The position numbers and the translations under genes were made by a program. Below, piece after piece: positions 2,971 through 25,791 of a DNA stretch of 26,612 bases. Each line of letters starts with the position of its first letter. Position 1 is the first letter of the stretch. The notes below the pieces were generated by a model. That model saw nothing but the letters and a program-made list of their open reading frames with translations. It did not search any database and was not told the DNA's origin. The DNA comes from a virus (lineage: Duplodnaviria > Heunggongvirae > Uroviricota > Caudoviricetes). The DNA is taken from IMG/VR virus record IMGVR_UViG_2541047923_000008. One strand, written 5' to 3'.

Positions 2971-3996
2971 TTACGCCAGTTGTACGGACACGAACGCATC
3001 AGGGTCAGCCAGCAGCATCAGCGGTGCTGACTGAATCATGGTGAACTCACGCGCCGGATCGCCGGTGGTCACCCAGTTTTTCGGGTAGCGGGCAGAGGCG
3101 TTAATACCTTCGCGCTGTGCGTCCGCATCCTGAATGCAGCCATAGGTGCGCAGACCGCGTGCCTGAGTGTTCCCCAGCACCATCGTGTTGTCCGGCAGGA
3201 AGTTCTTTTTGACGTCGTTTTCCACGTACTGTCCGGAATACACGACGATCGCCGTATCGCCATACATCCCCTTATAGGACACCGCTTCGCCCAGGTCTTT
3301 TACCGCTGTCTCCAGCTCGGAATTAGAGCCGCGACGGGTATCCAGCTTCTCCTTGACGGCTTTGAAGGAACGGAACAGCGCCCAGCCTTTCGGATCAAAC
3401 ACGATGATATTCACCACGCCGCTGGCGTTCAGCGCGTAGGCTTCGATATCGTCGGTCGGGTCATACGTGGACTTGTCACGCTTGCTCCACTCCGTACCAC
3501 CGGACTGTGTGATGTTGTTCGCCGCACTGCGGCCCATATCCACTTCAACCGGATCGAAGGCTTCACCGGTCATGGTGTATTTGCCCTTAAGCACGGCAGA
3601 AACTGCCTGCATCTCTTCGACCTGAGCAATGGCCAGCTCTTCGTCTCGCATGTTCTGCATGATGATGCGACGGCGGCGGTAAGCCGGGTCCGCCAGATTC
3701 TGTGGATCTTCATCCGGCAGGCGACGCAGGGTCATCTGCGGATTCACCTCATGCTTGGGTTTGACATATCCCGGTGTAAATTCAGAGGTGGAGCCGCCAC
3801 GGGATCGGATAACCTCACCGGAAACAATCGGCGAAACGTACAGCGCCATGTTTACCAGTCCCGGAATTTGTGAGAGATAGACTTTCTCCGTGGTGAAGGG
3901 ATAGCTCTCACGGAAAAAGAGACGCAGAAACAGCGGATCAAACTTAAATTTCTTCTCATTTGCCGCCAGCAGCTGGGCGGTTGTGTACATCGACAT
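2971..3996 (-). CDS. E: Major capsid protein gpE
   Basis: 341-aa ORF MSMYTTAQLLAANEKKFKFDPLFLRLFF... matches lambda gpE in length and sequence. Confidence 0.95.
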   Translation of the reverse strand: MSMYTTAQLLAANEKKFKFDPLFLRLFFRESYPFTTEKVYLSQIPGLVNMALYVSPIVSGEVIRSRGGSTSEFTPGYVKPKHEVNPQMTLRRLPDEDPQNLADPAYRRRRIIMQNMRDEELAIAQVEEMQAVSAVLKGKYTMTGEAFDPVEVDMGRSAANNITQSGGTEWSKRDKSTYDPTDDIEAYALNASGVVNIIVFDPKGWALFRSFKAVKEKLDTRRGSNSELETAVKDLGEAVSYKGMYGDTAIVVYSGQYVENDVKKNFLPDNTMVLGNTQARGLRTYGCIQDADAQREGINASARYPKNWVTTGDPAREFTMIQSAPLMLLADPDAFVSVQLA

Positions 3997-11274: not shown

Positions 11275-11448
11275 CTAGATTAAATCAATCTTGATATCAT
11301 AGCTTTCAAGACCAGTCATTTTTTCCCGTGCAGTAAACTGGATACTGGTAACTTCTTTCCCGGTCTTTTTCTTAAGCTCAATGATTTTTTTTGTTATATA
11401 TTCAGAAATATCTGCTTCTGTTTTTGTTTTTAACTCTTCAATGTTCAT
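11275..11448 (-). CDS. GnsB-like small protein
   Basis: C-terminal 57 aa (MNIEELKTKTEADISEYITKKIIELKKKTGKEVTSIQFTAREKMTGLESYDIKIDLI) resembles E. coli GnsA/GnsB as I recall them; the ORF-track N-terminal extension is probably not translated. Confidence 0.6.
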   Translation of the reverse strand: MNIEELKTKTEADISEYITKKIIELKKKTGKEVTSIQFTAREKMTGLESYDIKIDLI

Positions 11449-11620
11449 CATTTCCTCTTTTAGTCTGTTATGACTGTCCTGGTACACAGTAGTGTCAATT
11501 ATATGGAGCAAACGTATAAAAGATAAGATGAAACATCGCAATAATCAACATACGACGGTCTAAATTTCACACAAACAGATAAAGATGATTATCATTTATT
11601 ATCAATGCATTAGAATCAAA

Positions 11621-11916: not shown

Positions 11917-12122
11917 TTCATTTTCACTTTCTTAAATCTAACGACAGATGGCTAACATTTAAGTATTGTGAAATATTATCAAATGTAATCATCATTGATT
12001 TACAAAAGATACATTTTGCCCCGAAAGGATTTCTGTCAGAAACATCAAAAGATGATGTTCTATACTGAGAACCATGGCAACACGGGCATCTAAAGTGAAT
12101 ATGGTTTGTAATATTTTCTACC

Positions 12123-12335
12123 TCAAAGTGCCACTACATGAACAGCTGCAGGGCCTTTAGGTCCGTTCTCAATACCAAATTCGACTTCCTGATTCTCAGT
12201 TAACGTTTTGAAATCGTTGCTCTGAATAGCTGAGAAATGCACAAACACATCTTTGCTACCATCTTTCGGCGTGATGAAACCAAAACCTTTTTCAGGGTTA
12301 AACCATTTCACTAAACCAGTCATTTTGTTAGACAT
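12123..12335 (-). CDS. Cold-shock protein, CspA family (CspI/CspB-like)
   Basis: [38 protein letters not shown]... contains the RNP1 motif KGFGFI and RNP2-like VFVHF of the cold-shock domain; about 360 nt of non-coding sequence upstream, consistent with the long csp 5' UTR. Confidence 0.85.
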
Positions 12336-12698
12336 CATTATTACCTTTTGAAGAAGTTAGCCCTTGGGCAGAATGGTCCGAAAAAAAATATCAGAGAGAA
12401 AAACCAACAAGAAAATCTCAAGAGGTACAAATAATAAAATTATAACAATGACTGCTTCAGATAATTTTGTAACAAACCAGAACACCATTAACGCATGATT
12501 AACCAACCATAGCAAGGATTACTTTTGTAAAGAAAAACACACGAATGAAACAATAGCTTTATTTATTAATAAAACGTGTCATTCTGTCTAATGACCTTTT
12601 ATCTTACCCTTAAGATTTCAAGGATTTTGACTCATGGAAGAGTCCTTTTTATTTAAATTTCACATTCAGCGCTAAAAATAATCCGATTTAATATTAAT

Positions 12699-13726
<1,028 letters not shown>

Positions 13727-13839
13727 GGATATTTATCAGGATTTATCGGCTTCAAATCCCCGGATATGTTAAATCTTACCTCACCAGTGATGGGCACTGG
13801 CGGGAGGAGGATGTCAATCTGATAAACACAGAGGTGACT

Positions 13840-14100
13840 ATGGATTACACAAATCTACCAAAACAAACTTTTGCTGATTTAATCGCACTCAGGCAAGCAG
13901 TCGTAGCTCTAATCAACTTGTTGCCGGAGAAGGAAAAGGAATTAGTTAAAGCGCTTCTTAACAGAACTGCCGCCGATTTTTCATCATATCCACTGACAGA
14001 TGACCTTGCGGACCTTCCTGAATTAATTGCAGCGTCCGCCATTAAGCTTACTGAAGAGATTTACCCTCCTCAAAAATCTTCACAAAATTCCTGCGAGTAA
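13840..14100 (+). CDS. Orphan 86-aa protein of unknown function, inside the lysis cassette on the opposite strand
   Basis: ORF 13834..14100; ATG at 13840 preceded by AGAGG (5-nt spacer); followed directly by a strong intrinsic terminator; no recognisable motifs, acidic and helical-looking. Confidence 0.5.
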   Translation: MDYTNLPKQTFADLIALRQAVVALINLLPEKEKELVKALLNRTAADFSSYPLTDDLADLPELIAASAIKLTEEIYPPQKSSQNSCE

Positions 14101-14118
14101 CTTCAATGCAATAATCGT

Positions 14119-14154
14119 AAAACGCCGCAAACTGCTCATCGCGGCGTTTTTTTT
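14119..14154 (+). terminator. Rho-independent terminator (CGCCGC stem, 12-nt loop, T8 tract)
   Basis: AAAACGCCGC-loop-GCGGCGTTTTTTTT immediately after the stop of the 13840..14100 gene. Confidence 0.6.
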
Positions 14155-14348
14155 CATCTTCAGAAGGGATCAGCACCGACAATTTTTTATTCAGATCAGC
14201 GACGCTGCCCTCCAGTTTTTCAATGGGCGATTCAATATCATCTTTTTCTGACCGCAATGCCGTCGGTGGCGTCTTCAGAGAACCAGTAGATGATATGACC
14301 TTTATATACTCACTATAGCATTGGTGGGATATTCCAGAGGAGGTCATC

Positions 14349-15482
14349 ATGCATTCGGAAAATATTGCGGCTTACGTCGGGCTGGATGTGCATAAAGAAA
14401 CGTTGGCGGTTGCTATTGCTGCACCTGAACGGCTTGGCGAAGTTCGTTATTATGGTACGATTAACAACGAAGCCCAGGCTGTACGTCGATTATTTCAGAA
14501 ATTGCAGGGACTTTACGGAAACATTCTTTCCTGCTATGAGGCTGGCCCCTGTGGTTTTGGGCTATATCATCAACTCACAGCGATGAATATAAAATGCCAG
14601 GTTATTGCCCCTTCCCGCATACCAAAATCACCGACAGACAGAATCAAAAATGATCATCGGGACGCAATTTCTCTCGCCAGGTTACTGCGGGCTGGAGAAC
14701 TTACCCCTGTCTGGATCCCTGACCTGACTCATGAAGCTATGCGGGATCTAATCAGAGCCCGTGCAGCAGCTAAACGAGACAGCAGAGTTGCCCGACAGCG
14801 AATTCTGAGCATGCTATTGCGAACAGACAAACATTATGCAGGAAAGCACTGGACAGGAAAACATCGAACCTGGTTAGCTAATCAATCATTTAGTCAGCCA
14901 TCTCAACAGATTGCTTTTCAACACTATTGTCAAAGTCTGGAGCAGATTGAAGATCGCATACTTCAACTCGACCAGGAAATATCTCGCCTGTTACCTGAGT
15001 GGTCTCTGTGCAATCTGGTCTGCCAGTTGCAGGCTCTTAAAGGTGTTGGTCAGCTAATTGCAATAACTCTGGTTGCTGAACTGGGTGATTTTTCGCGATT
15101 TTCCAATCCCAAACAGCTCATGGCTTTTCTGGGACTGGTGCCAGGTGAATATTCCAGTGGAAACAGTATTCGTCCCAGAGGAATAACAAAAGTTGGAAAC
15201 AGCGAACTGAGACGTCTGCTTTACGAAGCCGCCTGGTCTTATCGTACACCTGCAAAAGTTGGGGCATGGCTTATATATTACCGACCGGACTCTGTAACAC
15301 AATATTCCAAAGATATTGCATGGAAAGCTCAACAACGATTGTGTTCTCGTTACCGAAGTCTGACAGCAAAAGGGAAAAAATCACAAGTAGCCATTACGGC
15401 GGTGGCTCGTGAGTTGACTGGATTTATGTGGGATATTGCACTTGCTGCCCAATCATCATTCAGTCAGCAGAAGCAAAATTAA
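14349..15482 (+). CDS. IS110-family (DEDD) transposase/recombinase
   Basis: 377-aa ORF; N-terminal VGLDVHKETLAVAI motif typical of the IS110-family DEDD domain and C-terminal helix-hairpin-helix-like region (LKGVGQLIAITLVAELGDFSRF); strong GAGGAGG Shine-Dalgarno. Confidence 0.85.
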   Translation: MHSENIAAYVGLDVHKETLAVAIAAPERLGEVRYYGTINNEAQAVRRLFQKLQGLYGNILSCYEAGPCGFGLYHQLTAMNIKCQVIAPSRIPKSPTDRIKNDHRDAISLARLLRAGELTPVWIPDLTHEAMRDLIRARAAAKRDSRVARQRILSMLLRTDKHYAGKHWTGKHRTWLANQSFSQPSQQIAFQHYCQSLEQIEDRILQLDQEISRLLPEWSLCNLVCQLQALKGVGQLIAITLVAELGDFSRFSNPKQLMAFLGLVPGEYSSGNSIRPRGITKVGNSELRRLLYEAAWSYRTPAKVGAWLIYYRPDSVTQYSKDIAWKAQQRLCSRYRSLTAKGKKSQVAITAVARELTGFMWDIALAAQSSFSQQKQN

Positions 15483-15484
15483 AC

Positions 15485-15655
15485 CCTGAAGCAGTCAGAC
15501 ACGGAATGAGTGATCCTCGTAAAAGAATTCAGGGAAGCCAGAATGCGCTAATACCTGCACGTAGAAAGAGGCCAGCTCACTGCGTAAATCGTCATGGGGC
15601 TAAAATCCCCGAATAAGAGTTTGTAAAATCCAAGATACAGTCTGACTGTTTCAGG
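15485..15655 (+). ncRNA. Candidate structured non-coding RNA closed by a 16-bp inverted repeat immediately 3' of the transposase; possible IS1111-type guide (bridge/seek) RNA
   Basis: CCTGAAGCAGTCAGAC at 15485-15500 pairs with GTCTGACTGTTTCAGG at 15640-15655 (15 Watson-Crick pairs plus one G-U) enclosing about 139 nt. Confidence 0.35.
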
Positions 15656-15710
15656 TTCTTTAATCCGCGATATAACGAAGCTCCCGGAGCTGCGTAAGGT
15701 CTTTTTGGGC

Positions 15711-16046
15711 TTAATATTTGACAAAGGTCATAAGAATTCTTCCTGGTAGCTTTCCTTTGTAGGTTATCCACACATTCTGCGCCTCTAAAATTACGGGGCG
15801 CTTTTCCGGCGACTGCTCATCCCCTTCACATAACCCGGCAGCAACATCCAGGAAGACCTGTCTGATGCTCCTTCTGGCTGCTGCCTCATAAAACTCCAGC
15901 GCGGCACCTTCAACACGGTCCAGCGAGATGTCCAGGTCAAAAATTTCGCCGTCAAAGCGTTTTTTGTCCCGTAACGCTAAAGTTACCGTAACTTTATTCT
16001 CAAAATTGCGGATCCCTTTCACAATCAGTTCATAGTTTTGAGTCAT
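15711..16046 (-). CDS. YdfR-like small protein between holin and endolysin; the C-terminus may be altered by the adjacent insertion
   Basis: 111-aa ORF starting 4 nt after the holin stop (MTQNYELIVKGIRNFENKVTVTLALRDKKRFDGEIFDLD...); resembles, from memory, the E. coli Qin-prophage YdfR encoded between essQ and rrrQ. Confidence 0.5.
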   Translation of the reverse strand: MTQNYELIVKGIRNFENKVTVTLALRDKKRFDGEIFDLDISLDRVEGAALEFYEAAARRSIRQVFLDVAAGLCEGDEQSPEKRPVILEAQNVWITYKGKLPGRILMTFVKY

Positions 16047-16050
16047 TGAA

Positions 16051-16266
16051 TTACTCTCCCCGTGCAGCCTTACGCTTGTCTTCTCTGATTTTGAAGTACA
16101 GATTTGTCAGATAAGTCAGGAAGCCCAGAACCAGACTCCCCAGTACACCAATCGCAGCCCACTGTGACGGACTGACCTGATCAAGCCACTGTAAAAACCA
16201 GTAGCCAGCACTGCCTGCGGAGGTGCCGTAGGCAATGCCCGTTGAAATTTTGTCCATGGATTTCAT
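16051..16266 (-). CDS. Class II pinholin, phage 21 S-type, with dual-start motif MKSMDK
   Basis: 71-aa [74 protein letters not shown] matches my memory of S21; two transmembrane segments; GGAGGTG Shine-Dalgarno. Confidence 0.9.
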
Positions 16267-16557: not shown

Positions 16558-16632
<75 letters not shown>

Positions 16633-16635
16633 ATA

Positions 16636-16711
<76 letters not shown>

Positions 16712-16713
16712 AC

Positions 16714-16790
16714 TGGACCGCCACCGGGGACTCGAACCTCGCACACTCAACTTAAAGGGTTGACGCTCTTTCCTGATGAGCTAGTGGCGG
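16714..16790 (-). tRNA. tRNA-like gene, possibly tRNA-Lys (UUU) or a degenerate tRNA pseudogene
   Basis: Reverse complement CCGCCACTAGCTCATCAGGAAAGAGCGTCAACCCTTTAAGTTGAGTGTGCGAGGTTCGAGTCCCCGGTGGCGGTCCA; good acceptor, D and anticodon stems, but C at position 33 and one T-stem mismatch. Confidence 0.4.
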
Positions 16791-16791
16791 C

Positions 16792-16867
16792 TGGTGGCCC
16801 TTGCTGGATTTGAACCAGCGACCTGGCGATTATGAGTCGCTCGCTCTCACCACTGAGCTAAAGGGCC
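16792..16867 (-). tRNA. tRNA with anticodon CAU (Ile2/lysidine-type or Met), ileZ-like as in lambdoid Stx phages
   Basis: Reverse complement GGCCCTTTAGCTCAGTGGTGAGAGCGAGCGACTCATAATCGCCAGGTCGCTGGTTCAAATCCAGCAAGGGCCACCA; resembles E. coli ileX-type tRNA as recalled; anticodon loop CUCAUAA. Confidence 0.7.
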
Positions 16868-17042: not shown

Positions 17043-17078
17043 TGCATGAAATATATGCCTTTCAATCTACTTTTGCAA
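17043..17078 (-). promoter_or_regulatory. Candidate late promoter (pR'-like): -35 TTGCAA, 17-bp spacer, -10 TATATT on the minus strand
   Basis: Minus strand reads TTGCAAaagtagattgaaaggcaTATATT; overlaps the 3' end of the Q-like gene, the position of pR' in lambdoid phages. Confidence 0.5.
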
Positions 17079-17757
17079 TACTTTGCTTTGAAAATGCCGC
17101 CTTTTGTTTTGAACGTGTTCTCATTACAAACAATAAAGCCTCACTATCAAGTCGGTGAAAAATGTGTTTCATTGCAACCCAGTGACGAGTAAATGTTTTG
17201 GACCAGTTTTTAGTTGTCACTCCCGCCAGTAATGCCAGCTCCTGGTATTCATAACCTTCCCCACCAAAAAGTTCTGCTTTTACTGCCTGCGCCGCCAGCC
17301 AGATTAATTTTTTCAGGCGTTCCTGCGTTTTCCCTGCAATTTTTCTGGTACCGGATTGAGTATTAAATTCATTCCACGCCCACTGTGTTATCGCGATCTG
17401 ATATTCCCAACAAATACTCCCGCTGTAACACCACAACAACCAGGCTTTATGATGTTCTTCAAGAGACAGAACAGCCCGCCGCCACGATGATGTCGAAAAC
17501 TCAACCGGACTGACCAGAGGAATTGACGTCCCCTTCGCCAGCGATTGCTTTCCCGGGATTGGTGGATTATCCCGCGTTATCATTTTTCCAGTCACTTCAT
17601 CGCGGTACCGGATTTTTTTTCGCCTGTAACGCCCTGTATCGAACATGGCATTCTCTTGCCAGGCTTCAAGCTGACCTTTTGTTGCCCCACTCAAATCAGC
17701 GGTGGCGATAATGAGCTGCTCACGCACAAACTGTAAATACTGGTTATTCATGCGCAC
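17062..17757 (-). CDS. Putative late-gene antiterminator (Q-like)
   Basis: 231-aa ORF immediately upstream of the candidate late promoter/terminator pair, tRNAs and holin, and downstream of rusA; assignment is by synteny, no sequence similarity to lambda Q. Confidence 0.5.
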   Translation of the reverse strand: MRMNNQYLQFVREQLIIATADLSGATKGQLEAWQENAMFDTGRYRRKKIRYRDEVTGKMITRDNPPIPGKQSLAKGTSIPLVSPVEFSTSSWRRAVLSLEEHHKAWLLWCYSGSICWEYQIAITQWAWNEFNTQSGTRKIAGKTQERLKKLIWLAAQAVKAELFGGEGYEYQELALLAGVTTKNWSKTFTRHWVAMKHIFHRLDSEALLFVMRTRSKQKAAFSKQSIAKVD

Positions 17758-20281: not shown

Positions 20282-20437
20282 TTACTCCTCAGGTTCGTAA
20301 GCTGTGAAGACAGCGACCTCCGTCTGGCCGGTTCGGATTCGTACCTCGCAGAGGTCTTTCCTCGTTACCAGTGCCGTCACAATGACGGTTAAACAGATGA
20401 CGATCAGGGCGATTAACATCGCCTTTTGCTGCTTCAT
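20282..20437 (-). CDS. hok: Hok-family membrane toxin (type I toxin-antitoxin)
   Basis: 51-aa product MKQQKAMLIALIVICLTVIVTALVTRKDLCEVRIRTGQTEVAVFTAYEPEE matches my memory of HokD/RelF; the ORF track shows a 19-codon in-frame upstream extension. Confidence 0.85.
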   Translation of the reverse strand: MKQQKAMLIALIVICLTVIVTALVTRKDLCEVRIRTGQTEVAVFTAYEPEE

Positions 20438-20652
20438 AGCCTGCTTCTCCTTGCCTTTCGGCACGTAAGAGGCTAACCTAGATTTGCCGTTCATAGATTG
20501 AGCCTCAGATTAATGTTAAGCGTCTTGCAGGACGCGTAATGTTAACTGGGGCTTTTCTCTATCTGCCTTTGGTGTTCATGCCTGAGGCAGATAGCCTCAA
20601 GCACCCGCAGCAATTCTACTTAACTCACGTCACCTCGCCAATATAAAATCAA

Positions 20653-21231: not shown

Positions 21232-22566
21232 ATGTTTAGCTTAATCATGGCCGGAGAACCGGACGTTTTTGACCGCTGGCCGTGTATGGACCCTGGGCTT
21301 AAAGAAGGCGAGGAAAGATTCTCGATGTCCCGCATGCTGGAAGGCACCCCAAGCGATATTTACAGTAAATTAACACCAATAAGACCCGATACCTTAAGAG
21401 AACTCGCCAAGCTACCAGTATTGTTCATGACCGAAACTTATACAAAAGATGATGAATATGATACAAACAAGTACATCAGGATCAGACTTGGGGAAATAAG
21501 AAACTTACGTAAAGATGGTGGCGATATTTTATTTTCTTTCAAGATTAATCATAATTTTGGAGAAATAACGAATCCCCAAACGACATTATATAAAGAAACC
21601 CTAGGGCTAGGATCTTTCGGGTTAAGTCGTACACATTGGGCAGTAAAAAATAAGGATTTAAATATTGTTCTGGAATCACTTGGTTTAAACAAACAAAATA
21701 GCCAACTGAAAGGTACAATCAAATTAAAAAAACAAACATACCCAGTAGTCGAGAATATTATAGATTATCTTAGTTTCATAAAGAAAAACTTTCGTGATGG
21801 TCTCATTACCTTTTATCGTGGACACTCTAAAAGCTCATATGAGCTTGTCCCCTCTCTTTACAGAAAAAATCAAAACGGGACGTACAGGCATCTTGCTTCA
21901 GAATCTGATTTAGTACGTGAAATACTCAGCGCAAGACCAAATGAATTTAAGGAGGATAAATTTACGATTGATAAACTTGTCCGCATGCAGCATTATGGCT
22001 TGCCTACAAGACTCTTAGACATTACATCTAACCCACTGATAGCATTATATTTTGCTTGCTGTTCGAACCCCGATGAAAACGGACAGGTGATTTCGTTTTC
22101 AACAAATAGAAAGAAAATTAAATATTTCGACTCAGATACAGTGAGCTGTATAGCAAACTTATCACTTTTATCTTACGAAGAGTTGGAAAAATTGTCCTCC
22201 TCTGATTCCAGAAAAGGTAATATGGAGTTATCTGAACTCACGGATAAACTTGCAGACCTTATACAGAATGAAAAATCATATTTCAGAAACAGAATAATTC
22301 CTGATGACTTAAGGAAAGTTGTTTTCCTTAAGGCTAAAATAAATAATGAACGCATACAATCTCAGGCAGGAGCTTTTCTTCTGTTCGGACTTGATCCCAT
22401 TTTACCGGAAACAGATGCTGAGTTTCCTCTTAACAGAGTGGAGATAGCGAACAAAAATAAAATTCTGGAAGAGCTGGCGCAGCTTAATATATCCGAAAGC
22501 ACTGTATATCCCAGCATGGAGAAAACGGCAGCAGAAATTGCAACAAAGTTTTTATCGGTATCATAA
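21232..22566 (+). CDS. FRG-domain protein with an uncharacterised N-terminal domain of about 190 aa; candidate prophage accessory or defence gene
   Basis: 444-aa ORF with AGGAG Shine-Dalgarno 6 nt upstream; contains the FRG-family motifs as I recall them: FYRG (aa 194-197), QHYGLPTRLLD (aa 253-263), NERIQSQAGAF (aa 371-381); AT-rich, opposite strand to the surrounding phage operon. Confidence 0.8.
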   Translation: MFSLIMAGEPDVFDRWPCMDPGLKEGEERFSMSRMLEGTPSDIYSKLTPIRPDTLRELAKLPVLFMTETYTKDDEYDTNKYIRIRLGEIRNLRKDGGDILFSFKINHNFGEITNPQTTLYKETLGLGSFGLSRTHWAVKNKDLNIVLESLGLNKQNSQLKGTIKLKKQTYPVVENIIDYLSFIKKNFRDGLITFYRGHSKSSYELVPSLYRKNQNGTYRHLASESDLVREILSARPNEFKEDKFTIDKLVRMQHYGLPTRLLDITSNPLIALYFACCSNPDENGQVISFSTNRKKIKYFDSDTVSCIANLSLLSYEELEKLSSSDSRKGNMELSELTDKLADLIQNEKSYFRNRIIPDDLRKVVFLKAKINNERIQSQAGAFLLFGLDPILPETDAEFPLNRVEIANKNKILEELAQLNISESTVYPSMEKTAAEIATKFLSVS

Positions 22567-25084: not shown

Positions 25085-25155
25085 CCAAAAGTTTAATAAT
25101 CAAAACCAAAGAAAGTCAAGAAACAAAACCATCTGTGTTTTAAAATCAAAACATG
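25085..25155. promoter_or_regulatory. oR-type operator/promoter region between cro-like and cI: operator palindrome GTGTTTT-N6-AAAACAT (25135-25154) and candidate pR (-35 TTGACT, -10 TAAACT on the minus strand)
   Basis: 7-6-7 inverted repeat overlapping the cI start codon; additional GTTTTG/CAAAAC half-site-like motifs at about 25088-25130; same palindrome recurs at oL. Confidence 0.5.
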
Positions 25156-25791
25156 AGCAAGCAAACAATATCTGAACGCATAACCCAACGTATGCATGCG
25201 CTAAACCTGAAAGGCAAAGACCTTGTCAATGCCACTGGCGCATCAAAAGGCTCCGTAAGTCAATGGATGAACGGTGGAGGAGCGCCGTCCTCGCGTTACA
25301 TAAGTTCACTGGCAAAGATATTGAAAGTAAACGAAAATTGGCTTCTTAATGGAGGAGAGTTAAATACAGGTGATTCGCTTGATCTATCTTTACCGCCGAT
25401 AAAAACGGTTCCGCTACTATCACTTCAGCAGGCAGCAAGCTGGAGTGATTATATGAAAAATTCCTCAATAACCTCTTGTGTGCAGCTTGTCGGAGAAATC
25501 CCGGCCAATACCTTTGCAGTTGTTCTAGAGAGTGACAGTATGTCAACATCTGGTGGGGGGGTTTCCATCCCAAATGGTTCAACAGTTTTTGTTGATCCCG
25601 ATCGAACCGTACAACCAGGAAATATTGTCCTTGCCTTACCCAAAGGGACCACAACACCTGTCATTCGTAAACTGGAGATAGAAGGGCCGGATATTCTTTT
25701 AGTCCCCACGAATCCTCGCTACCCTTCAATTATGCTGGATGATCTATCTTGCATATTGGGCGTATGCTTTAAAATTCAACAAGATATTTAA
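25153..25791 (+). CDS. cI: CI-type prophage repressor (N-terminal HTH, C-terminal LexA/S24-like autopeptidase domain)
   Basis: 212-aa ORF; HTH region (LKGKDLVNATGASKGSVSQWMNG); C-terminal Ser (LESDSMS) and Lys (VIRKLE) spaced like the S24 catalytic dyad. Confidence 0.85.
   Translation: MSKQTISERITQRMHALNLKGKDLVNATGASKGSVSQWMNGGGAPSSRYISSLAKILKVNENWLLNGGELNTGDSLDLSLPPIKTVPLLSLQQAASWSDYMKNSSITSCVQLVGEIPANTFAVVLESDSMSTSGGGVSIPNGSTVFVDPDRTVQPGNIVLALPKGTTTPVIRKLEIEGPDILLVPTNPRYPSIMLDDLSCILGVCFKIQQDI

Follow-up and report, generated by a model that had tools for sequence, protein, structure and literature searches.

A copy of ISEc45 in the lysis region of a lambdoid prophage: a probable off-target insertion of an element that prefers IS66-family transposase genes

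Introduction

How did a transposase gene come to lie among the lysis genes of a lambdoid prophage, and what directed it to that position? The question is raised by a stretch of 26,612 nucleotides, called here the window, which represents a lambdoid prophage whose late genes lie on the minus strand. The order in its lysis region is holin, DUF1327/YdfR-like ORF, the insertion sequence ISEc45, an 88-aa ORF, endolysin and Rz-like gene (Table 1). A preliminary description of this DNA had proposed that an IS110-family element using an element-encoded guide RNA was inserted between the holin/YdfR-like genes and the endolysin, and that its junctions could reveal the sequence that it recognises. RNAs of this kind have been shown to be expressed, bound by the transposase and required for transposition for ISEc11, ISPa11, ISKpn4, ISPst6 and ISEc21 (PMC11187229), and an expressed, recombinase-bound and required RNA has been shown for IS621 (PMC11208160). 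The locus is examined here for the identity of the element, its exact site, its predicted guide RNA and the target that its other copies occupy. Insertion points are marked by a caret throughout.

Results

Identity and ends of the element

The element of the window can be identified as ISEc45, which is already catalogued and named and whose mechanism is already published. Over its 1447 bp, it shows 100% identity to copies in PMV-1, in a derivative of E. coli Nissle and in other strains, and such identity over this length with many E. coli copies lies far beyond chance. In a megablast search of 5,426 complete E. coli genomes, the identical copies carry the RefSeq label "IS110-like element ISEc45 family transposase" (WP_000555401.1), and a copy at an element coverage of at least 80% is present in 587 genomes. 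In addition, over the roughly 100 N-terminal residues printed in the supplement of PMC11187229, the ISEc45 protein of ISfinder is identical to that of the window. The naming of the element, one of the checks proposed beforehand, leaves nothing new to name; the literature found on ISEc45 consists of resistome surveys that list the name.

Alignment of both window junctions with the empty sites of BEN5202 (L003) and HS (L004) gives a complete copy at 14288-15734. The interval of 14250-15710 given in the preliminary description was therefore close, but not exact. Since one A is common to the element and its target, the boundaries can alternatively be read as 14289-15735. Both ends are identical in every sampled ISEc45 copy in which both are readable.

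The layout of ISEc45 is of the IS1111 type, and the element is placed in this group by its architecture. The boundaries set by the empty site leave a left terminal extension of 7 bp (AGATGAT) and a right one of 3 bp (AAG), which are the lengths given for the two sides by the IS1111 rule (PMC11187229). In related elements, the left extension reads AGATGnn or AGnnnnn. The repeats that follow are subterminal. The proposed absence of terminal inverted repeats holds for the very ends, and ATGACCTTT(AT) and its complement are found just inside them, the left repeat matching the right one at 10 of 11 positions with 9 bases perfect. Relatives have subterminal repeats of 9-16 bp at the same place; in the IS1111 group they usually measure 11-13 bp, with a range of 7-17 bp given in PMC11208160. 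The right repeat overlaps a conserved TTGACA (15718-15723). Non-coding DNA amounts to 61 nt upstream of the transposase gene versus 252 nt downstream of it.

When the two ends are joined as in a circle (...GGTCATAAG^AGATGATATGACC...), a 17-bp spacer separates this TTGACA from TATGAC, itself preceded by TGA. TTGACA/TATGAC may possibly constitute a junction promoter, and a promoter of such kind has been described for ISEc11 (PMC11187229). At the right junction of the integrated copy, where the sequence reads TTGACA, a 17-bp spacer and TCCTGG, no hybrid outward promoter is evident.

The transposase

The 377-aa product is, by its sequence, an intact IS110-family DEDD transposase. It matches the Pfam families DEDD_Tnp_IS110 (PF01548, E 8e-16) and Transposase_20 (PF02371, E 7e-24) and the NCBIfam model NF033542 "IS110 family RNA-guided transposase" with 278.9 bits for a cut-off of 140. 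The DEDD residues are D13, E64, D102 and D105, and a Ser-Gly motif (S270-G271) is located in GLVPGEYSSG. The plus-strand DEDD-type transposase proposed at the outset is therefore confirmed. All these residues are kept across 17 relatives, with the exception of D102, where two relatives have N. In a comparison with the solved IS621 transposase, the C-terminal region can be aligned around the ESG motif of IS621, and the alignment of the N-terminal GxD is weak. In a blastp comparison with a small panel, the best match was IS1533 (32% over 341 aa, E 1e-47), which is counted as IS1111 family (PMC11187229); weak matches were obtained with IS1111A (28% over 242 aa), ISCth7 (23% over 413 aa) and IS621 (29% over 152 aa). 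The public collection lists the exact 377-aa protein in 12,075 blocks.

Table 1. Features of the window and sequences of the target sites
Feature	Position	Strand	Remarks
cI-like repressor	25153-25791	+	
FRG-domain protein, sok RNA, DUF968 protein, RusA			listed between cI-like repressor and Q
Q antiterminator	17062-17757		
Four tRNA genes	16558-16867		
P21-type holin	16051-16266	-	
DUF1327/YdfR-like ORF, as found	15711-16046	-	
N-terminal 104 codons of YdfR-like ORF	15735-16046	-	
Right target flank	15735-15746	+	AATTCTTCCTGG
ISEc45, complete 1447-bp copy	14288-15734	+	boundaries set by the BEN5202 and HS empty sites
Right terminal extension	15732-15734	+	AAG, 3 bp
Right subterminal inverted repeat	15721-15731	+	ACAAAGGTCAT, reverse complement ATGACCTTTGT
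Predicted seekRNA/bridge RNA	15484-15655	+	172 nt, closed by 16-bp stem
Putative donor-binding region	15585-15619	+	hairpin GGGG-CUAAAAU-CCCC; 5' flank UAAAUCGUCAU, 3' flank AUAAGAG
Putative target-binding loop, 3' strand	15558-15564	+	CACGUAG; same sense as left target -5 to -1 plus core AG
Putative target-binding loop, 5' strand	15519-15529	+	GUAAAAGAAUU; complementary to top strand, right target +1 to +11 (AATTCTTTTAC)
Transposase gene	14349-15482	+	377 aa; DEDD/RuvC-like domain and C-terminal Ser-Gly domain
Left subterminal inverted repeat	14295-14305	+	ATGACCTTTAT
Left terminal extension	14288-14294	+	AGATGAT, 7 bp; first two bases AG are the crossover core
Left target flank	14276-14287	+	CAGAGAACCAGT
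C-terminal 79 codons of YdfR-like ORF	14048-14287	-	displaced by the element
88-aa hypothetical ORF	13834-14100	+	opposite strand to lysis genes
Endolysin	13193-13726	-	
Rz-like gene	12699-13196	-	
csp gene with cspA-type leader, then GnsAB-family ORF			after Rz-like gene in listed order
Nu1, large terminase, portal, protease, major capsid, tail genes			last in listed order
Restored (element-free) site			CCAGTAATTC
ydfR target site			CCAGTAATTCTTCCTG
IS66 target site			CACGTAATTTTTCTTT
ISEc45 circle junction			GGTCATAAG^AGATGATATGACC, joined ends

The interrupted ORF and its empty counterparts

A query made of the joined flanks detected the uninterrupted site GAGAACCAGT^AATTCTTCC in 285 of the 5,426 complete E. 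coli genomes, and a megablast search of the same genomes found the occupied site in none. The empty site CCAGT^AATTC and the occupied one, CCAGT[AGATGAT...CATAAG]AATTC, align exactly at both junctions, with a target duplication of zero bases apart from the one ambiguous A. This alignment, also proposed in the preliminary description, defines the exact site, and the homologous prophages that lack the element in these 285 genomes bear out its view of an insertion as opposed to ancestral gene content.

The insertion is within the lysis region as had been described, not in an intergenic position but inside the YdfR-like ORF. Moreover, the assumed adjacency of the YdfR-like gene and the endolysin does not hold, the 88-aa ORF on the opposite strand being located between them as well. 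In BEN5202, the uninterrupted YdfR-like (DUF1327) ORF encodes 183 aa (3399-3950 of locus L003), with the Pfam domain at residues 1-112, and is flagged by RefSeq as a partial YdfR-family pseudogene. ISEc45 splits it exactly between codons 104 and 105, as verified by a check of the frame, 8-9 residues before the end of DUF1327. The N-terminal fragment extends into the element as far as 15711 and gains seven residues encoded by it (LMTFVKY), for a total of 111 aa.

This 111-aa junction ORF exists only when the element is present, and it was found on three contigs in the whole public collection. Two of them are identical to the window over the compared 6336 and 3405 bp (assemblies GCA_000460215.1 and GCA_021357805.1). 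With 285 empty sites versus no occupied one in complete genomes, and a junction ORF limited to three contigs, the insertion is rare and recent and not a part of the ancestral content. The empty-site cassettes are themselves diverged (94.6-98.1% identity) and include the Qin-type remnant of HS.

ISEc45 is antisense to late transcription, and a simple scan of its minus strand predicted no terminator-like site inside it. Antitermination by Q would be expected to carry transcription through the element. Because of this expected read-through and the lack of a predicted terminator, the lysis and head genes of the prophage may well still work.

A structured RNA downstream of the transposase gene

The non-coding region 3' of the gene is predicted to encode a 172-nt RNA whose fold has a z-score of -2.7. 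Related elements were collected by a scan of one genome per species, which yielded 76 loci at 32-97% identity. An RNAalifold consensus of 10 relatives contains 30 pairs, 17 of which show compensatory changes, and a covariance model was built from this alignment. In the window, the model has a single match (15485-15655, E 1e-39). It also matches 60 of the 76 related loci, always on the transposase strand and directly 3' of the gene. Across 51 distinct sequences, 93.6% of the cells are paired, a proportion that falls to 40-54% once the partners are displaced by 1-3 columns. Both sides have changed in 24 of the 30 pairs, and no shuffle reaches the observed values; the alignment of these 51 sequences was fitted to the model, which favours structure, and the margin is still large. 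The same RNA is present in elements of Planctomycetota and Acidobacteria. Rfam 15, searched at gathering thresholds and at permissive E-values, has no family for it, and the matches to SNORD65 and Xist obtained there are attributed to chance (E 2.7-9.9).

Guide loops and their covariation with the targets

The predicted target loop is the internal loop between the stems CCUC/GAGG and CAGG/CCUG. Its 5' strand, GUAAAAGAAUU, is complementary to the top strand on the right of the crossover. Its 3' strand, CACGUAG, reads like the left target followed by AG, and would therefore pair with the bottom strand. The seekRNAs of the IS1111 type display this arrangement, with the top-strand match first and both matches overlapping at the insertion point (PMC11187229).

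In the relatives, both loop strands change together with the flanks. On the left-target side, 3' strands CAGCCAG, CAGGUAG, CCUCAG and CCUUAG are found with flanks cagcc^ag, ggt^a, ctc^ag and ctt^ag, respectively. On the right-target side, 5' strands GCAAAAAUU, GCAAGAAUU, UCUUUU and UGUUUU are found with flanks agtttttgc, agttcttgc, agaaga and a(a/g)aaca, respectively.

The putative donor-binding region behaves in a comparable manner on its 3' side. AUAAGAG (15613-15619) corresponds to the final five bases at the right end followed by the core AG, and six combinations show clean covariation between this strand and the 3-bp right extension: AAG with AUAAGAG, AGG with AUAGGAG, CAG with AUCAGAG, ATT with AUAUUAG, ATC with AUAUCAG and ACC with AUACCAG. 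On the 5' side, UAAAUCGUCAU would pair with the left end in part, and this assignment is tentative. A clean complement of the left end was sought for this strand and rejected, only CAUC/GAUG being consistent, in a register that differs between clades.

The covariation of the structure and that of the guides with the flanks together support the element-encoded guide RNA of the preliminary description. The predicted RNA would be transcribed and bound by the transposase.

An additional guide was considered at GGUUCUU (15654-15660), located after the closing stem and complementary to the top-strand AAGAACC, which could have accounted for AGAAC at -9 to -5. It was rejected, not being conserved in the relatives; the off-target site of one relative (L026) is without bases equivalent to AGAAC. 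One limit of the guide assignment is that AGAA at -9 to -6, common to the window and the IS66 sites described below, falls outside both guides.

The preferred target is a motif of IS66-family transposase genes

Eighteen other copies of ISEc45 were sampled, in CFT073, one plasmid, ten loci with the exact protein and six further genomes or plasmids across the ranking; they represent a sample and not a full count. All 18 are within an IS66-family transposase gene or its remnant. Their junction usually reads gaagaacacgt^aatttttctttcc; catgt^aattcttttt and cataa^agttttt occur as variants. On this evidence, the preferred target of ISEc45 is shown to read CACGT^AATTyTTyT, encoding K-N^(W/Y)-(L/V)-F of IS66-family transposase genes.

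This preference extends to the relatives. Joining their flanks restores an ORF in Klebsiella, Nitrosomonas, Sphingomonas, Sphingomonadales, Methyloceanibacter, Rhodobacteraceae and another alphaproteobacterium, and the insertion point separates precisely the N and W codons (N and Y in one case, GWKN^YLF) of the motif G(R/K/W)KN^(W/Y)LFxGS. Two of the restored ORFs were tested, and both carry the Pfam domains DDE_Tnp_IS66 and DDE_Tnp_IS66_C. A limited literature search gave nothing specific on the insertion of IS110-family elements into IS66 and no description of this specificity.

Pairing with the guides was then compared at three sites, the left guide being read from -5 to +2 and the right guide from +1 to +10. 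At the IS66 site of CFT073 (L001), the left guide pairs at every position, with a wobble at +2, and the right guide pairs at all positions except +8 and +10, with a wobble at +5. At the IS66 site of L007, the left guide is mismatched at -3 only, with the same wobble at +2, and the right guide at +10 only. At the prophage ydfR site, the left guide is mismatched at -4 and -3, again with the wobble at +2, and the right guide pairs from +1 to +7 and is mismatched from +8 to +10. The continuous match at this last site is restricted to GT^AATTCTT (-2 to +7), in codons 103-107, and simple arithmetic gives a 9-base match a chance probability of about 4e-6. Since the guides of the window copy are the standard ones, this copy has not been reprogrammed. 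It used a look-alike site, and the ydfR site, with three contigs found, is read as a rare off-target insertion. The expectation that the junctions would reveal the recognised target is thus borne out in a restricted sense: they display a degenerate look-alike, the preferred target being the IS66-family motif.

Occupancy is not fully predicted by the guide match alone, since some canonical copies of ISEc45 occupy the IS66 site cataa^ag, where pairing of the left guide is poor. A variant of 97% identity found at cataa^ag carries CAUAUAG, which is a better fit. This situation suggests either tolerance of mismatches or the replacement of an older variant.

Discussion

With high probability, this locus results from a recent, RNA-guided but off-target event in which the catalogued ISEc45 inserted into a lambdoid prophage. 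The identity and ends of the element, its empty site, the fold of the RNA, the covariation of guides with targets and the preference for IS66 are shown by the data above. According to this explanation, the DEDD transposase gene would be followed by a structured RNA of about 172 nt with two short guides in one internal loop, GUAAAAGAAUU pairing with the top strand on the right of the crossover and CACGUAG with the bottom strand on the left, and a second region of the RNA would match the joined ends of ISEc45 itself. The presence of GT^AATTCTT in the YdfR-like ORF would have been sufficient for one insertion, probably via a circular intermediate; no bases were duplicated, and the late genes of the prophage would presumably still be expressed.

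The interrupted lysis module might instead have been imported from a related phage, through recombination or infection, the insertion having happened elsewhere. Lambdoid lysis modules are indeed mosaic, and at least two assemblies share the junction (GCA_000460215.1 and GCA_021357805.1). With only three contigs known, however, two of which were compared and show no difference from the window over 6.3 and 3.4 kb, one recent clone is a better fit than a circulating module. The import of an interrupted module is improbable and would leave the identity of the feature unchanged. A still less probable history makes the occupied arrangement ancestral and the empty sites products of precise excision. 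Elements of this family do excise precisely as circles, leaving no scar (PMC11187229, where excision was found to require flanks that resemble the target), so that an emptied site and a never-occupied one look the same in sequence. Such a history is nevertheless hard to reconcile with 285 empty and no occupied complete genomes, with empty sites that span cassettes as diverged as the Qin-type remnant of HS (94.6-98.1% identity), and with the 100% identity of ISEc45 to copies elsewhere, which indicates a recent arrival.

The choice of the site could also have been random, or determined by protein-DNA contacts only, the resemblance to the IS66 target being a coincidence. The positions left unpaired at the ydfR site (-4, -3 and +8 to +10) and the AGAA shared outside the guides are compatible with this idea. 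It is opposed by the nine contiguous bases around the crossover that match the sequence specified by the guides, by the concerted change of guides and targets across the relatives, and by the dependence on RNA shown experimentally for four IS1111-type elements and one IS110-type element (PMC11187229) and for IS621 (PMC11208160). A coincidence of this kind is very unlikely, and the off-target insertion of ISEc45 guided by its own RNA is retained as the explanation.

The copy of the window has the same DNA (100% over 1447 bp), protein and ends as ISEc45 elsewhere, and differs by its location, a prophage ydfR-like ORF, whereas the other sampled copies are in IS66-family transposase genes. With the IS1111-type seekRNA elements ISEc11, ISPa11 and ISKpn4 (Siddiquee et al. 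2024, PMC11187229), ISEc45 has in common the subterminal repeats, the 7- and 3-bp extensions, the absence of target duplication, the long downstream non-coding region, the conserved TTGACA of the right end, and the order of a top-strand match 5' of a bottom-strand match with an overlap at the insertion point. Its transposase is longer (377 aa versus the 330-350 aa typical of the IS1111 group) and is 28-35% identical to those of IS1111A, IS4321 and ISEc11 over partial alignments. IS621 (Durrant et al. 2024, PMC11208160; structures 8WT6-8WT9) resembles ISEc45 by its DEDD and Ser recombinase and, as far as the predicted ISEc45 RNA is concerned, by a single RNA combining a target loop and a donor region, both strands being read around a short core. 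The RNA of IS621, however, is encoded upstream of the gene, within the left end, with a CT core, whereas that of ISEc45 is downstream with an A(G/A) core, and the donor-binding bases form a simple internal loop in IS621 whereas those of ISEc45 would be arranged around a hairpin in a multi-branch loop. For the target, a published parallel is ISEc21, also an IS110-family element, which inserts at the DDE-motif codons in transposase genes of the IS3 family (PMC11187229, Supplementary Fig. 11). In both cases, the natural target is a conserved coding motif in the transposase gene of another IS family. They differ in that ISEc21 is of the IS110 type, with its RNA upstream and the IS3 DDE codons as target, whereas ISEc45 is directed to the GRKN^WLF codons of IS66.

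The insertion is in itself an ordinary event, and both the element and its mechanism were already known. At the level of the genome its weight is small, an accessory YdfR-like ORF of the prophage being interrupted by a catalogued insertion sequence. The present analysis adds the exact ends, the interrupted codon and the position of the RNA with its guides; it also identifies the IS66 motif as what the clade truly targets and provides one natural example of an off-target site.

With moderate confidence, ISEc45 can be viewed as a member of an old and widespread clade of RNA-guided elements that live as parasites of other insertion sequences, with guide loops tuned to the near-invariant IS66 GRKN^WLF codons in Gamma-, Beta- and Alphaproteobacteria, and the prophage copy as a natural off-target event. 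The landing of the clade in the IS66 transposase motif would explain why ISEc45 is almost always annotated beside broken IS66 genes in E. coli. If this view is correct, about 9-10 contiguous bp around the crossover would suffice in vivo, and mismatches would be tolerated at -4/-3 and beyond +7. A natural off-target site of an RNA-guided recombinase bears on the specificity rules of bridge- and seek-RNA systems, which are now in development for genome editing.

Genes surrounding the insertion in the prophage

The features identified around ISEc45, the IS110-family insertion sequence that splits the YdfR-like ORF of this prophage, are collected below. In the late region, the Q antiterminator gene and the holin gene are separated by the row of tRNA genes, and the cold-shock gene with its cspA-type leader is located downstream of the Rz-like gene. 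A conserved hypothetical ORF of 88 aa is convergent with the YdfR-like ORF and overlaps its 3' end. This small ORF, for which no family match was found, is present in other strains as RefSeq WP_001306174.1. In the early region, the sok antitoxin RNA, which scores strongly against its Rfam family, points to a hok/sok-type toxin-antitoxin locus. The FRG-domain ORF, a possible moron or defence gene, is carried by the strand opposite to the surrounding early genes.

Features of the prophage near the lysis genes and in the early region
Feature	Window position	Strand	Details
GnsAB-family ORF	11275-11541		
Cold-shock protein gene	12123-12338 (ORF), in 12077-12493	-	CspI/CspB-like, 71 aa
cspA thermoregulator leader	12077-12493	-	RF01766, full-length, 107.5 bits; on cold-shock gene
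Conserved hypothetical ORF	13834-14100	+	88 aa
Hairpin and T-run	14118-14153		GCCGC-N12-GCGGC-TTTTTTTT; after 88-aa ORF
Four consecutive tRNA genes	16558-16867	-	Gly-TCC, Thr-TGT, Lys-TTT, Met-CAT
sok antitoxin RNA	20432-20606	-	RF01794, 111.7 bits
FRG-domain ORF	21232-22566	+	444 aa; PF08867

Target bases beyond the guides

The prophage site and the IS66 sites have in common the bases AGAAC at target positions -9 to -5 (14278-14283 in the window), and the ISEc45 guides do not reach positions -9 to -6. The sequence GGUUCUU (15654-15660), directly 3' of the closing stem of the RNA, is complementary to this AGAAC; it is not conserved among ISEc45 relatives. At one IS66 locus (L007, GCA_054054525.1), where the left junction reads gaagaacatgtAGAACATGT^AGATGAT (^, insertion point), the left target is tandemly duplicated over 9 bp and directly abuts ISEc45.

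Relatives, remnants and guide variants

Outside IS66, a relative with about 55-59% identity was found in a Planctomycetota MAG (JAQCBR010000008.1). Its site, with the flank cagcc^agttcttcgg, lies in an unrelated ORF that encodes ...APKN^WLTPF... by chance, and is a second natural look-alike insertion. Acidobacteriaceae and Terriglobia MAGs contain a distant sub-clade (L042-L050) with about 45-47% identity and the inverted repeat ATGGAGCGACC. Its elements are present in several copies within a genome, and their varied sites follow the pattern yyTC^A(G/A)AA(G/C)A. The loop strands of these elements differ accordingly, and IS66 is not their target.

Truncated remnants, retaining only transposase residues 1-305 or 257-377, were detected in Escherichia ruysiae (L015) and in Shigella flexneri and E. 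coli (L065 and L066). Decayed ISEc45 copies therefore persist in related species.

A 97%-identical variant of ISEc45 occupies an IS66 remnant adjoining yaiO (L097, NZ_CP046416.1), and its left guide CAUAUAG fits its own flank, cataa^ag, at six of seven positions. The same yaiO-side site is also taken by standard ISEc45, whose guide CACGUAG shows three mismatches (L006, L011, L014 and L093 compared). Variant and standard copies at this site may reflect a natural reprogramming, followed by replacement.
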